Positions 52,299 to 55,893 of a stretch of DNA of 64,000 bases are shown piece after piece. Position numbers and translations under genes: made by a program. Each line of letters starts with the position of its first letter. Positions within the stretch are counted from its first letter, which is position 1. The DNA comes from Bacteroidetes bacterium GWB2_32_14 (lineage in GTDB: Bacteria; Bacteroidota; Bacteroidia; Bacteroidales; UBA12077), in assembly GCA_001768235.1 (NCBI GenBank), contig MENK01000035.1, forward strand, positions 61,755 to 125,754, given 5' to 3'. The notes under the pieces are model-generated. The model was not told the origin of the DNA and searched no databases. It saw only the letters and a program-made list of their open reading frames with translations.

Positions 52299-53903
52299 AA
52301 ACCCGATATTCGCTCCCAGGGAAATGGTATTTCGTGTTCCGTAGTAGTATGCCGGAGTGTATTTGATATTATCGCCTGTAATTTCGCTGTGTTGATACTT
52401 AACAAAAATATAACCATCGTTAATAACCTGGTAAGAAGCTCTAAGCGAGACCGTTTTATTTTCCCATTCCACGTTATCCATAAACGGATTCCCAAGCCGT
52501 GAACCTCCCAGGTCATCATAATCTTTGCCTTTTTGAGCAAACAAGTAATCGGCTTTAAGAATTAATGTTCTGAATGGTTTCACGATAACTGAAAAGTAGA
52601 ATTCATGTGAATTATCCATGAGATAATGACCCAGGTTATAGCCATTACTTTCGAATGTAGTGGTTGGAATATTGTGTTTGTAAGTGAGGGGCATCGACCG
52701 GGTGTATTCGGCTGTAATAAAGGTGTTTGTAATAAAATCGGAGATTCGTGTGCCGGCTTTAAAACTCCAGAAATTCCACATCGTATCGTTAAAAAACCTG
52801 TCTGTTGACAGCTCGTCAATAAATAAAGTGACCGAAAGATGTACTTTCTTTATATTTCGAGAGCTGATATCAATAAACATCTGAGAGTTCTGGCCTACAT
52901 TTCTCCCGGACTGATCGGTAGCATTGTAGGTATGGTCAACTGATTTGTAGAACATTACGGGAATAAGATACTGCAATTGCGGGCCATCGGAGCTGTAAAT
53001 AATTGAATTCCCCAGAGAAACATAAAAATTGTTCCAGGGTTTAAATGTGAATAGGTTGGCTGCCAGGTATTTATCGAACATTACATCGCGGGTATCGGTA
53101 CCGTAAGCATTGGTGAAAGTCATTGATGATGCACTATCGACAACTTCGGAAACAAGCCATCCGTGAACCCAGTTAAACTCGAACCATTTCGCGGGTTTGA
53201 GCTGTAGTTTAATGTGAGCAAACGAAGGTGTGTGGCCACTGAAAATGTTAGCCCCGTTGTAGTTGTTGCCCCACTCGAAATGATCTTTAACAATACCGAG
53301 ACTACCCCAGTTCCACGAATAGGTTAAGCCACCACGCATCTCGCTATAATCGCCACCATCGTCGGTATATTTGTAATTGGCCCCTGTTCGCTGAGTCAGG
53401 AAATCTTCTTTTTCAAGTATTGTACTTTCGTGGTTATCGCGCAGGCTTGCATAAAACCCCCAGTGATTTCCTACATAGGCAAATGCCTCGGCTCCATTCC
53501 ACCGATGATAAAAACTCCCGCTATCATTCATAAAATATTCAATTCCCAGTATGGGATTTACAGAAAACGTAAACAGCGAATCCTTGTAAGTGTATAAATC
53601 CAAGCGTTTATCAAAGTTTTTATCTTTTCGAAGTTCTTTATTAAAATCTTTGAAATAAAAATCGAGCTCTGCCTGCTGACGCGAGTTTAAAGAATAACTG
53701 CTTTCTTTAACCTCCGTGAGTTTTTCTGCTATAAACATTCTGGAAAAAGGCTTAACTGTAGTATGTATATCAATAACTTTTAAATTGGCAAACTCATCCA
53801 GAAAGTCGTAAACATCTTTGTTTGAAGTATGATAATAAACATTTTGTGCATACAATGAAATTGAAAAGAAAAGTATTGTAATTAGAAAGAATAGTTTTTT
53901 CAT
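52296..53903 (-). CDS. Capsule assembly Wzi-like outer membrane beta-barrel protein
   Basis: Signal peptide; N-terminal VYDFLDE..KPFSR helical segment; amphipathic strands; terminal Phe (GANIGF); at the end of a polysaccharide locus. Confidence 0.65.
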   Translation of the reverse strand: MKKLFFLITILFFSISLYAQNVYYHTSNKDVYDFLDEFANLKVIDIHTTVKPFSRMFIAEKLTEVKESSYSLNSRQQAELDFYFKDFNKELRKDKNFDKRLDLYTYKDSLFTFSVNPILGIEYFMNDSGSFYHRWNGAEAFAYVGNHWGFYASLRDNHESTILEKEDFLTQRTGANYKYTDDGGDYSEMRGGLTYSWNWGSLGIVKDHFEWGNNYNGANIFSGHTPSFAHIKLQLKPAKWFEFNWVHGWLVSEVVDSASSMTFTNAYGTDTRDVMFDKYLAANLFTFKPWNNFYVSLGNSIIYSSDGPQLQYLIPVMFYKSVDHTYNATDQSGRNVGQNSQMFIDISSRNIKKVHLSVTLFIDELSTDRFFNDTMWNFWSFKAGTRISDFITNTFITAEYTRSMPLTYKHNIPTTTFESNGYNLGHYLMDNSHEFYFSVIVKPFRTLILKADYLFAQKGKDYDDLGGSRLGNPFMDNVEWENKTVSLRASYQVINDGYIFVKYQHSEITGDNIKYTPAYYYGTRNTISLGANIGF

Positions 53904-53919
53904 TTTTAAATGTGAAAAG

Positions 53920-53940
53920 TTTATAGTCGATAGTCCATAG
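53920..53940 (+). repeat. Heptamer array downstream of the four-helix-bundle gene
   Basis: TTTATAG TCGATAG TCCATAG. Confidence 0.75.
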
Positions 53941-53963
53941 TTTTAGTTCGTTGCAAATGAATT

Positions 53964-54317
53964 CTATTTAATCGAATTTCTCAAAGATTGTATCATTTTT
54001 ATAATTTCTTCTGCTTTAGAATAATTATCCTGAAAAATATCCTGATTAATAAAACATGTTTTTTTAGCAATATGAAGACAAGCTACAACCTCAATTGCAG
54101 ATCTCAGAGCATAAGAAAGAAATTTTTTAAACTCTGGATTTGTTTGACCAGTTGAACCTTCTGCAATATTAAGAACAATAGAATCTGCCGCTCTTTTCAT
54201 CTGAGATGTTAGAACATAAATTTCGTCTTTGGGAAATGATTTTACTAATTTGTTAATATCATCATCAAAGGCGAGAGCTTTTTGCCATACAATTAAATTT
54301 TCAAACTTGAATGCCAT
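53964..54317 (-). CDS. Four helix bundle protein (23S rRNA IVS protein / Avd-like family)
   Basis: FENLIVWQKA...FPKDEIYVLTSQMKRAADSIVLNIAEGS...FKKFLSYALRSAIEV, the signature of this family. Confidence 0.93.
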   Translation of the reverse strand: MAFKFENLIVWQKALAFDDDINKLVKSFPKDEIYVLTSQMKRAADSIVLNIAEGSTGQTNPEFKKFLSYALRSAIEVVACLHIAKKTCFINQDIFQDNYSKAEEIIKMIQSLRNSIK

Positions 54318-54326
54318 ATAAATTTA

Positions 54327-54357
54327 CTATTGTCTATCGATTGTGGACTATTGCCTA
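54327..54357 (+). repeat. Heptamer array upstream of the four-helix-bundle gene
   Basis: CTATTGT CTATCGA TTGTGGA CTATTGC, then CTA (the stop of the sugar transferase). Confidence 0.75.
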
Positions 54358-55893
54358 GCTACTGCGTGCACTTTTAAACAGTATATTCCACAGGGCTTTC
54401 CAGAAATATTTCCAGTCGGTAAGGAGAGGGTGTTTTTCGTAGGCGTTTAGGTATTTCATTTCTGAAGCTTCAATTTCTTCAAGTGTTTTAGGCATATCTA
54501 CATAAAAAGGAGGAATTAACCCGGGTTTGGTTTTTATTCGTTTTTCCTGTAACTCTTTTGAGTATAAACTGAAATAATGTTCACTTAACGGACGGACGCC
54601 AAAAAGCTTCATCTCGCCTTTAAAAAAATTTATAAACATGGGTAGTTCGTCGAACCAGAATTTTCGAAATATCTTACCTAAAGTAGTTACCCGAAAATCA
54701 TCTTTGAATTTACCCCCTTCCTGTAAGTCAGATTTCTCATAAACATATTCCTGTAAATATTCGGCAAAAGGGTGCATGGTGCGGAACTTATACACGTGAA
54801 TTATTTTACCATTTTTACCTATTCTGCGAAGTTTTATTAATGGCCCATAGGTAGGATGCTGGTCGTAAAAAGGTTTTCTTGTTTTGCGGGCAATATAATA
54901 CAGTAACCCCCGGATATTTTTTTCAGAAACAACTTCAAAGCCACACGAATATAACCTGCCCAGAACTTCTGCTTTTGATAATACCCGGTTATTGCCCCGT
55001 GTAAGAAAAAAATATACCCCCTTCGTAAGGTTGAATTTTGGAAATACCCTCTTGATAATAAAATCGAAGAAATAGTAAATACTGTTCAGCACGGGGGGAT
55101 ATTTACTGAAAATTCTCTTTTTACGCTGGTTTTTTGATTCAAAACAACCTATAAATATTCCCTGTTCGGGGAGTTTACGATTTACCGACTCGAAAAATTT
55201 GTTAATGTACCGCATATCGTTGATGCGGCGGAGATTCACGATTTTATGATAAACCTTCTCGGGGAGCTTATCAACATTAAAACGGGTTGTGGTAGAAAGT
55301 AACGAATAATCGGGTATGTTAAGGTCTATATGTTCTGATATAAAGGTAAATACATCAATGTTAGATTCTTCAATAATTGCATCACGAATATTTTCGGGGG
55401 CTTTTTCAAAATTTACATCCGCAGGAAGAGGCTCTGCAACAGGTACTTCGGTATATCTCCCGACAGTACGTTGATACACTTCGAAAACCTTTGATGTATC
55501 AGGCCCGGGTTTCGCACTGCATATAAAATAATCACAAAAAGAAAAAAAGAGTTCAAAAACGGTACCCAGGGATATAGTCCCTAAAACAACGATACGTGAA
55601 TAAAACAGGGAGCGAAACGAAAACATGATAATTGCTATAAGGCCTGTTATAATAAAGTTTGTAAGAATAATGTGCCATGCAGCACGGGATATGCTGTATC
55701 TTTCCGGGGCAGAGTATTTACGTGAAATTAAAGATATAAGTATCCATATTGCCAGAAAAAACAGGAAGGGATAAATATAGGCAGGCAAATAAACCCGTTT
55801 TGTTGCCGGTTTTATCCAGATCATGATTAAAAACGCCATGGTTAAGGCAGCAATATCAACAATAGTATTTATAAATACCGAGCGGCGGTTCAT
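54355..55893 (-). CDS. Bacterial sugar transferase (initiating polyprenyl phosphoglycosyl transferase family) with N-terminal TM region
   Basis: RIGKNGKIIHVYKFRTM, DDFRVTTLGKIFRKFWFDELP, GEMKLFGVRP, KPGL. Confidence 0.88.
   Translation of the reverse strand: MNRRSVFINTIVDIAALTMAFLIMIWIKPATKRVYLPAYIYPFLFFLAIWILISLISRKYSAPERYSISRAAWHIILTNFIITGLIAIIMFSFRSLFYSRIVVLGTISLGTVFELFFSFCDYFICSAKPGPDTSKVFEVYQRTVGRYTEVPVAEPLPADVNFEKAPENIRDAIIEESNIDVFTFISEHIDLNIPDYSLLSTTTRFNVDKLPEKVYHKIVNLRRINDMRYINKFFESVNRKLPEQGIFIGCFESKNQRKKRIFSKYPPVLNSIYYFFDFIIKRVFPKFNLTKGVYFFLTRGNNRVLSKAEVLGRLYSCGFEVVSEKNIRGLLYYIARKTRKPFYDQHPTYGPLIKLRRIGKNGKIIHVYKFRTMHPFAEYLQEYVYEKSDLQEGGKFKDDFRVTTLGKIFRKFWFDELPMFINFFKGEMKLFGVRPLSEHYFSLYSKELQEKRIKTKPGLIPPFYVDMPKTLEEIEASEMKYLNAYEKHPLLTDWKYFWKALWNILFKSARSS

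Follow-up and report, generated by a model that had tools for sequence, protein, structure and literature searches.

A PF05635 gene and its inverted heptamer arrays come and go as one unit at an operon junction of Bacteroidetes bacterium GWB2_32_14 and its relatives

Introduction

What is a small gene doing between two genes of one operon, and why is it bracketed by seven-nucleotide (nt) words in inverted orientation? The question is raised by positions 53,920 to 54,357 of a 64,000-nt stretch of contig MENK01000035.1 from Bacteroidetes bacterium GWB2_32_14. This stretch is referred to as the window; the locus is read on its minus strand, and positions are window coordinates unless a contig is named. 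A gene for a 117-amino-acid (aa) four-helix-bundle protein of the PF05635/TIGR02436 family lies there between a sugar-transferase gene (sugT) and a gene for a 535-aa protein, with an array of heptamers (an arm) on either side. Gene and arms together are called the cassette below. The family is very common and its function is not known; only the rare copies inside 23S rRNA genes have been studied so far. Here, the cassette was followed through related genomes, and its arms were examined for signs of selection at the level of RNA or of DNA.

Results

Turnover of the cassette at the sugT/535-aa junction

Four orthologs of the focal protein, at 74–80% identity, were found among the 37 genus genomes searched (G033, G010, G007 and G034), and all four lie between the same two host genes as the focal copy. 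An ortholog of the 535-aa gene is present in 33 of the 37 genomes. Thirty genus loci with this ortholog were taken into a census of the junction, and both host-gene ends were readable in 24. Five of the 24 junctions carry the focal cassette lineage. Two are occupied by a second PF05635 lineage, whose words are purine-rich (GGAGAGA type) upstream and of the TCTCTCC type downstream, and three by an intact 137-aa PDDEXK_3 (GxxExxY-type) gene with CACTAAG/CTTAGTG words on its flanks; another, in G031, holds a PDDEXK_3 copy judged by eye to be decayed. A GIY-YIG gene with palindromic elements and a 3' remnant of the PDDEXK_3 cassette is found at two junctions (a third GIY-YIG copy lies at a contig end), palindromic repeats with duplicated sugT fragments at one, and a 198-nt element at one. 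The other nine are empty, with 10–107 nt between the host genes and no arrays. Three further genomes have a different upstream gene (UPF0102 + YjbR, recognized by Pfam in G047 and by eye in G001 and G008).

The cassette is thus cleanly present or absent at this junction (5 of the focal lineage and 9 empty sites among 24), as would be expected of the mobile unit proposed in an initial annotation made from the letters of the window alone. Filled, empty and replaced junctions show that gene and arrays form one unit of gain, loss and replacement, and the sugT/535-aa junction is a hot spot.

Occupant types are scattered over a tree of the neighbor protein (27 rows; G018 was dropped as too short). 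The sister genome of the source genome in this tree is G031 (91% aa identity in the neighboring gene, support 100/99), which holds the decayed PDDEXK_3 cassette. G003, in the same tree, has an intact one, and a clade of eight genomes has empty junctions, bar one genome with the 198-nt element. In abutting 150-nt windows, the flanks of the focal cassette are 88% and 80% identical to those of G031, compared with 74–78% and 65–69% for the genomes that share the cassette. Since the sister genome is the nearest in flank sequence all the way to the cassette, exchange was confined to the cassette itself, and import of the cassette by recombination through the flanking genes was rejected.

Palindromic elements of the GTCATTCC...GGAATGAC and TGTCA..CTCAGCTTGTCGAAG types stand beside GIY-YIG genes at the junctions of G035, G042, G014 and G013. 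In G014, two duplicated 3' pieces of the sugar-transferase gene lie with them.

Arms across the family

The upstream words of the four orthologs (TAGTC(G/A)ATAGT-like) are of the same class as those of the focal copy. Their downstream CTATNNA arrays comprise about 4–5 units in G033 and G010, five 14-mers in G007 and twelve heptamers in G034. Synonymous divergence (dS) is saturated among these orthologs, and the arms have therefore kept their word class across saturating synonymous divergence.

Sampling of the wider family was confined to the genus and phylum of the source genome, with 110 genus loci (108 usable) and 30 phylum loci (29 usable, one having an internal stop). An arm score was obtained by aligning the upstream flank to the reverse complement of the downstream flank. 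Scores of at least 25 were reached at 68/108 genus and 18/29 phylum loci, 86 of 137 overall, against 5.8% of the open reading frames (ORFs) of the source genome and 8.1% and 5.7% of mismatched upstream–downstream pairs. At a score of at least 30 there were 48 genus and 8 phylum loci, with controls of 1.2% of ORFs and 2.6% and 2.7% of mismatched pairs. The aligned arms are about 30 nt long (interquartile range 26–36); the median distance is 18 nt from the end of the upstream arm to the start codon and 2 nt from the stop to the downstream arm. With a self-shift identity of at least 0.5 taken to define a tandem-periodic flank, 92 of 274 flanks were periodic (76 with period 7, 9 with period 8). 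Of the two features that the initial annotation had proposed to look for in homolog flanks, inverted arms are enriched, and among periodicities period 7 is dominant.

Among 278 protein pairs with at least 70% identity, 254 share a homologous flank and so represent the same site in different species. The other 24 have no flank similarity, the best of them at 87.6% aa identity. Eleven different-site pairs were checked, and in 10 the resemblance of the arms on one or both sides exceeds the 95th percentile of random pairs. Because arms are shared at non-homologous sites, the relocating unit is arm–gene–arm. Gain, loss, replacement and relocation thus affect gene and arms jointly. Presence and absence at the junction, and arms that travel with the gene, both support a cassette that has no transposase and is acquired and lost whole.

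The focal locus

The cassette is fitted precisely into the stop/start gap of two successive operon genes and shares their orientation (Table 1); the initial annotation had placed the heptamers, the ORF and the reverse-complement pair correctly to the base. The TAG stop of sugT (54357–54355) abuts the cassette directly. It is followed in 7-nt register by GCAATAG (54354–54348), TCCACAA (54347–54341), TCGATAG (54340–54334) and ACAATAG (54333–54327). The downstream heptamers are CTATGGA (53940–53934), CTATCGA (53933–53927) and CTATAAA (53926–53920), and the TCGATAG of the upstream arm is the exact reverse complement of the CTATCGA of the downstream arm. The ATG of the 535-aa gene stands at 53903, 16 nt past the cassette. 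The sugar-transferase protein also gave a TIGR03025-like match with a score below the cut-off.

Table 1. Coordinates of the cassette, its parts and its host genes in the window, in order of transcription
Feature	Position	Strand	Basis or remark
Upstream host gene, 512-aa polyprenyl-phosphate sugar transferase (sugT)	54355..55893	-	PF02397 Bac_transf, E 3.6e-24
Whole cassette, 435 nt: upstream arm, 9-nt spacer, 117-aa gene with its stop, 23-nt spacer, downstream arm	53920..54354	-	Entire stretch missing at empty junctions
Upstream arm, four heptamers, G-containing ATAG word class	54327..54354	-	Sequence and inverted-repeat arm
117-aa four-helix-bundle gene (23S_rRNA_IVP family), intact	53964..54317	-	PF05635 and TIGR02436
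Downstream arm, three heptamers, C-containing complement class (CTATNNA)	53920..53940	-	Sequence; Tandem Repeats Finder period 7, 2.7 copies
Downstream host gene, 535 aa	52296..53903	-	No Pfam/TIGR family; N-terminus resembles a signal peptide

Among ORFs of at least 50 aa within the cassette there is no transposase, only the 117-aa PF05635 gene and an overlapping, unsupported 55-aa ORF on the opposite strand. An Rfam scan of 53500–54800 with E values up to 1 gave no match. The focal region has no terminator-like sites, and its seven promoter-like sites are no excess over the 4.5 ± 2.3 of shuffled sequences, the consensus used being one that may not fit this phylum. With neither a promoter-like excess nor a terminator-like site, the cassette is presumably read within the host transcript.

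An inverted-repeat search placed the focal arms at 53915–53941 and 54326–54352 (27 nt, 74% complementary), with shorter versions of 18 nt at 78% and 14 nt at 86%. The source genome has 3.66 Mb at 33.5% G+C, and 3046 of the 3081 ORFs called in it were scored. Their arm scores have a mean of 18.6 and a standard deviation (sd) of 3.5; the focal gene, with a score of 20, ranks 876th. Within this genome, the matched flank score is 21.1 against 17.4 (sd 3.6) for mismatched flanks, and only three four-helix-bundle copies are in the top 5% of the score. In a genome so rich in AT, neither a count of shared 6-mers nor a strict local-alignment score had much power. RNA folding of 53900–54365 gave an 8-bp long-range stem (AUAGUCCA/UGGACUAU) in both predicted structures, that of minimum free energy (MFE) and the centroid. 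Taken as a whole, the fold does not exceed shuffled sequences in stability (z = +0.78; 82 of 100 shuffles folded at least as well). A transcript stem that loops out the ORF, as initially suggested, is thus present in the predicted structures and is weak.

Scored generically and by itself, the focal repeat is not above chance. Three CT[AG]T words at 7-nt spacing, a pattern picked after the site had been seen, occur at five places on the two strands of the 3.66-Mb genome. It is this rare period-7 pattern, together with the longer arrays of the orthologs and the family-wide statistics, that places the focal repeat above chance, and the decisive support comes from the relatives.

Mismatches within the arms

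Arms selected for pairing in the sense transcript should have mismatches enriched for G·U over A·C. In the best arm alignments, G·U and A·C mismatches number 49:60 in the genus and 16:19 in the phylum, and the genus value is about that expected from flank composition (0.093:0.107). Distinct arm alignments gave 65:77 at a score of at least 25 (n = 85), 41:48 at 30 or more and 28:36 at 35 or more. As a positive control, the same script was run on flanks of 16S rRNA genes from the same phylum, at 28 of 30 loci (the other two lacked a complete flank within the contig). The 16S processing stems had 57 G·U against 9 A·C mismatches in 25 distinct alignments (p = 1e-9). The method therefore detects RNA-level selection where it is present, and none was detected in the cassette arms.

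The two strands were also compared by duplex energy. With RNAduplex, the genus loci gave −32.69 kcal/mol for the sense and −32.58 kcal/mol for the antisense strand, the sense being better at 57 loci and the antisense at 51 (p = 0.56); at the phylum loci the sense was better at 15 and the antisense at 14. Non-matching arm columns recur at lags of 6, 7, 8 and 14 (ratios 1.31, 1.37, 1.21 and 1.32). Mismatches phased in this way suggest that each word has fixed and free positions, as in a binding motif. In the 85 alignments, the upstream arm has more G than C in 73, more C than G in 5 and a tie in 7. Both the MFE and the centroid fold of the G034 ortholog contain a long-range stem of some 20 bp (z = −1.21).

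As far as sequence comparison can tell, the wobble test argues against an RNase-III-type stem as the selected feature of the arms and would favor DNA-level word arrays. The alternative raised in the initial annotation, an RNA-processing stem cut by RNase III, finds no support as a selected function: the focal stem is weak, the mismatch counts are far from those of the 16S stems, and sense and antisense energies are equal. The comparison with a 16S control is, we believe, a new step.

The 16S matches in G071, G080, G100, G148, G157, G137, G179 and G194 came in abutting or gapped pieces, with breaks near model positions 546 and 873. These may reflect search filters, contig ends or insertions in the gene.

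The protein and its family

The 117-aa protein matches PF05635 with E = 8e-35 (119.7 bits, cut-off 33.8) and TIGR02436 with E = 6e-32 (110.1 bits, cut-off 24). Its closest solved relatives are Protein Data Bank (PDB) entries 2gsc (E = 1e-11) and 2rld (E = 3e-5), each with five chains per entry. Six columns are invariant in a 13-sequence alignment (L8, Q39, S46, N50, E53 and E76, focal numbering), and all are kept in the focal protein. The ratio of nonsynonymous to synonymous substitution (dN/dS) is 0.09–0.14 between the focal gene and its four orthologs and 0.05–0.16 among all five, where dS is 0.7–2.1. The protein is under purifying selection.

No defense-family match was returned by PADLOC for the focal protein, and no nuclease family by the Pfam, TIGR and PADLOC searches. 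The Pfam search also gave no bAvd (PF22296) match for it; two orthologs and two second-lineage proteins have sub-threshold bAvd matches (21.6–25.8 bits, cut-off 40).

PF05635/TIGR02436 matches, about 1,880 in number, occur in 330 of 401 sampled genomes of the phylum. All 37 genus genomes have PF05635, with about 345 matches or some 9 per genome. The source genome has about 10 PF05635 places, at least four with internal stops. The copies with internal stops or frame breaks (C27:62346-62624, C27:57539-57820, C14:160409-160699 and C17:34141-34438) are still flanked by co-oriented operon genes, and cassettes decay in place. Elsewhere, PF05635 matches lie within open frames of 330–339 aa (G047:C3:88211-88516, G037:C51:3798-4103 and G010:C36:18945-19214), possibly as fusions or as read-through with a neighbor gene.

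Sites of insertion

Across the family loci, the upstream neighbor is co-oriented with the cassette gene in 78 cases and opposite in 10, and the downstream neighbor co-oriented in 69 and opposite in 2, the rest being unclassifiable; at none of these loci are both neighbors opposite. In the source genome, 9 of 9 copies lie between co-oriented genes. By Pfam, the eight junctions other than the focal one are C39-ABC exporter/HlyD, HlyD/AcrB, LMWPc/methyltransferase, MurD/FtsW, PAPS_reduct/GTP_EFTU (CysD/CysN-like), HlyD/MacB, FtsX/ABC_tran and AcrB/101-aa ORF. This diversity indicates that the target is the operon stop/start junction in general. A preference for polysaccharide operons, which the initial annotation had suggested, finds no support in junctions as unrelated as these.

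Arrays of similar words also occur away from such genes. A solitary array of the focal class lies on the same contig about 15 kb past the end of the window (G000:C35:140932-140984, G000 being the source genome), and reads CAATGGA CTGGGGC CTATCGT CTATTGA CTGTGGT CTATCAA CTATGGA. It has no PF05635 match nearby, and an exact 9-mer search found no reverse-complement array within 1.5 kb. This could be an arm standing alone or what a lost cassette left behind. At G000:C9:79659-79800, five perfect AATTATG units and then nine TTTTAGGCA units precede a gene, and further cases are found at C17:101973, C22:31181 and C8:239000. TTAGGCA is also the arm word of PF05635 cassettes at C4:45752 and C24:77741. 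TTAGGCA-type arrays away from cassette genes show that solo word arrays exist. Perfect heptamer arrays that are unlinked to PF05635 or PDDEXK_3 genes were seen at C10:27362-27411, C1:234182-234230 and C1:163212-163236 (TGAATCC in 7.1 and 3.6 copies, CAAACTT in 7). Of the 95 period-7/8 arrays in the source genome, five lie within 200 nt of a PF05635 or PDDEXK_3 gene, an enrichment of about 21-fold.

Host gene starts within the arrays

In three of the five cassette genomes (G033, G010 and G034), the start codon and the first 4–14 codons of the 535-aa gene lie within the heptamer array. The array-borne starts read MDYKLWTIKLL.., MNCLTVDHKLWTIKL.. and MNHKIL... G014 has lost the small gene and retains the array-derived start MNYKLWIIELL, while empty sites begin MKKYC... 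A seeming remnant array in G014 proved to be this 5' end of the host gene, itself derived from the array. Repeats of the cassette have been taken over as coding sequence by the host gene.

Discussion

Preferred reading

The results suggest, at about even confidence, that the 435-nt stretch is one copy of a widespread transposase-free cassette whose arms are DNA-level word arrays, with its own protein as the putative reader. The arms would be maintained as inverted terminal arrays of a short recognition word whose core is conserved and whose other positions vary, and not as the two strands of an RNA stem. The word would most probably be read by the cassette's own Avd-like protein, a putative nucleic-acid binder; in the sister cassettes, the PDDEXK_3 nuclease would take that role. 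Such arrays would label where the unit ends, for use in its maintenance or its rare movement. As a side effect, the arms may still pair in the transcript and be cut by RNase III, the two models not being exclusive.

Several points weigh against this reading. The cassette encodes no enzyme for movement, we know of no catalytic activity of PF05635, and sites on double-stranded DNA do not usually have a 7-bp period. Inspection of the filled junctions by eye showed no target-site duplication. There are no near-identical copies at different sites either, the best pair being that at 87.6% aa and the paralogs in the source genome being distant; movement is therefore rare or old. Many of the loci are mutually orthologous, so that the family counts overstate independence, and 90 of the 95 period-7/8 arrays in the source genome lie away from PF05635 and PDDEXK_3 genes. 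Strict arm polarity and near-total co-orientation fit a transcript-level role better than the symmetric ends of a transposon, shared descent from one ancestral cassette being another possible cause of the polarity. Finally, the 23S rRNA intervening sequence (IVS) of Coxiella has inverted repeats that form a 28-bp stem cut by RNase III (PMC4990558).

Other explanations

The Coxiella case leads to an alternative that we regard as unlikely but worth serious attention, in which the cassette is an IVS-like RNA element. The arms would pair in the operon transcript and RNase III would release a stem-capped mRNA, uncoupling the cassette from the host cistrons, so that RNA complementarity is what is selected. 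The gene family is the same as in 23S rRNA IVSs, and PMC4990558 describes a 28-bp terminal stem of the Coxiella IVS, cut mid-stem by RNase III, and tandem GACAGAT heptamers ahead of the ORF. Co-orientation always places both arms on one transcript, the G-rich arm is the 5' one in 73/85 alignments, and the focal copy and G034 both have long-range stems in their MFE and centroid folds. At another site, both arms were seen by eye to have changed word in concert, from TTAGTAT/ATACTAA to TTAGATT/AATCTAA; such a change is equally expected if the identity of the word is selected. The stems, nevertheless, belong to folds with z values of +0.78 and −1.21, and the arms are very unequal (4 and 3 units in the focal copy, about 4 and 12 in G034). 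Mismatches show no wobble signature and are phased with the word period, the sense strand is no stabler than the antisense, and in three of the five orthologs the downstream arm is within the coding sequence of the next gene.

A free-standing selfish gene of the homing type is less probable, and we consider it doubtful. It would have the junction as its hot spot and would spread by recombination through the conserved flanking genes, leaving the arrays as functionless by-products prone to slippage. PDDEXK_3 and GIY-YIG nuclease genes do occupy the same junction in other genomes, with occupants scattered over the neighbor tree; most close protein pairs (254/278) are at the same site, and target-site duplications were not seen. 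Array length varies from 3 to 12 units among the orthologs, and solo arrays of cassette words exist elsewhere in the genome. PF05635, however, is not a nuclease family, and there is no imported flank around the focal copy. Functionless arrays would also be difficult to reconcile with arms that retain their word class where dS is saturated, change jointly on the two sides, accompany the gene to non-homologous sites and have a nearly invariant polarity.

A far more speculative proposal, which we hold to be very improbable, is that the arrays are the binding track of a pentameric Avd-like protein, with one word per subunit, as TRAP does with triplets. The cassette would move by way of its transcript: the protein would grip the arms of its own RNA, and a reverse transcriptase acting in trans would copy it into a transcribed target. 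If true, this would account for the restriction of cassettes to transcription units (operon junctions and rRNA), invariably in sense orientation and with neither target duplications nor a transposase. It would also link rRNA intervening sequences, the Avd proteins of diversity-generating retroelements (DGRs) and the unexplained heptamer arrays of bacteria.

We give marginally less credence still to a regulatory spacer that serves the host, in which 7-nt slippage shifts an array-borne start in and out of frame and so tunes the downstream gene, the small gene being incidental. CTATGGA does contain an ATG, 7 is not a multiple of 3, array-borne starts are found in G033, G010 and G034, and G014 keeps one without the small gene. 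Imperfect arrays, on the other hand, are poor substrates for slippage, and the host gene begins beyond the array in both the focal genome and G007. Many unrelated junctions have the family in this same architecture, and the small gene is under strong purifying selection. That the focal heptamers are an accident of an AT-rich spacer is hardly credible: the rank of 876 among 3046, the flank scores in the source genome and the fold z of +0.78 would allow it, but it is contradicted by four other species with the same word class and longer arrays, by a period-7 CT[AG]T pattern at only five places per genome and by the family-wide enrichment.

Comparison with known systems

The closest known thing is the ORF-bearing 23S rRNA IVS, and the focal cassette is an IVS-type cassette outside rRNA. 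In PMC4990558, the IVS of Coxiella burnetii is placed in helix 45 of the 23S rRNA, with further ORF-bearing IVSs in Leptospira and others, and is described as having tandem GACAGAT heptamers before the ORF and a near-perfect 28-bp terminal stem. Shared with the focal cassette, on that description, are an S23p/PF05635 ORF, a length of about 0.43 kb, enclosing terminal inverted repeats, tandem heptamers, the lack of a transposase and a patchy distribution; the number of IVS heptamers before the ORF also varies between strains (PMC4990558). The focal cassette differs in lying between protein-coding operon genes and not in an rRNA helix, and its arms are short and imperfect (27 nt, 74%) compared with the near-perfect stem of Coxiella (PMC4990558). 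Arms of the family embedded in mRNA also lack the G·U bias of rRNA processing stems.

PF05635 is reported (PMC10053308) to resemble Avd, the four-helix-bundle accessory protein of DGRs (PDB 4DWL), with a homologous fold. The focal protein, unlike Avd, scores as 23S_rRNA_IVP and not as bAvd. A DGR Avd locus was rejected: the adjacent genes encode the sugar transferase and the 535-aa protein, with no reverse transcriptase or template/variable repeat pair there, a search that did not extend to a reverse transcriptase in the wider window.

Free-standing homing endonuclease genes are found between conserved genes of phage genomes. With these the cassette shares a small gene between conserved co-oriented genes, presence or absence at one site, rival selfish genes at the junction and the lack of a target-site duplication. 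It differs in that its gene is of no known nuclease family, carries its own inverted arrays and has no co-converted flank that could be seen. A classical homing endonuclease gene was rejected, the focal protein belonging to no nuclease family; the other occupants of the junction, PDDEXK_3 and GIY-YIG, do belong to such families.

Ends of the Tn7 type and the subterminal repeats of plant CACTA/En-Spm elements consist of several short protein-binding repeats in inverted orientation. The cassette resembles them in having arrays of short words at both ends, inverted and with a word specific to the element lineage. Unlike such ends, it comes with no transposase, no visible target-site duplication, units of 7 nt, a strict orientation to host transcription and no recent copies. 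An insertion sequence, miniature inverted-repeat element or other DNA transposon was rejected for lack of a transposase, target-site duplication or near-identical copies. The attC cassettes of integrons likewise comprise a promoter-less single gene and imperfect inverted repeats and are read from a host or platform promoter. Here, by contrast, the arms are on both sides of the gene where an integron cassette has one 3' attC, and there is no strand-specific wobble bias. An integron cassette was rejected on the two-sided arms and the solitary copies at nine operon junctions, an integrase not having been searched for.

Cyanobacteria have arrays of tandem 7-nt intergenic units, the short tandemly repeated repetitive (STRR) sequences, whose function is not known. 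The present arrays are from a different phylum, and the STRR-related literature found states, in the portions available, no link to the PF05635 family. In a large clustering study, '23S rRNA IVP' is listed among genes linked to clustered regularly interspaced short palindromic repeat (CRISPR) arrays (PMC10910872). It might be speculated that tandem word arrays beside PF05635 genes were picked up there as CRISPR-like repeats.

In the full-text literature, the repeat architecture was found described only for the Coxiella IVS, within rRNA (PMC4990558); this is provisional, most subscription journals being outside the search. On the same provisional footing, IVS-type cassettes outside rRNA are new here, and PF05635 IVSs within 23S rRNA were already known.

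Implications

In summary, the evidence supports a cassette, the case for RNA processing is weaker after a controlled test, and a preference for polysaccharide operons is unsupported. The wobble test and its positive control shift the working model from RNase III stems to DNA-level word arrays, and so towards binding and mobility. The census shows one operon junction used in turn by four kinds of small, selfish-looking genes, and its turnover, with repeats recruited as the start of a host gene, provides examples of how such elements reshape operons. For the PF05635 family itself, near-universal self-contained cassettes with lineage-specific 7-nt arrays provide a candidate substrate.

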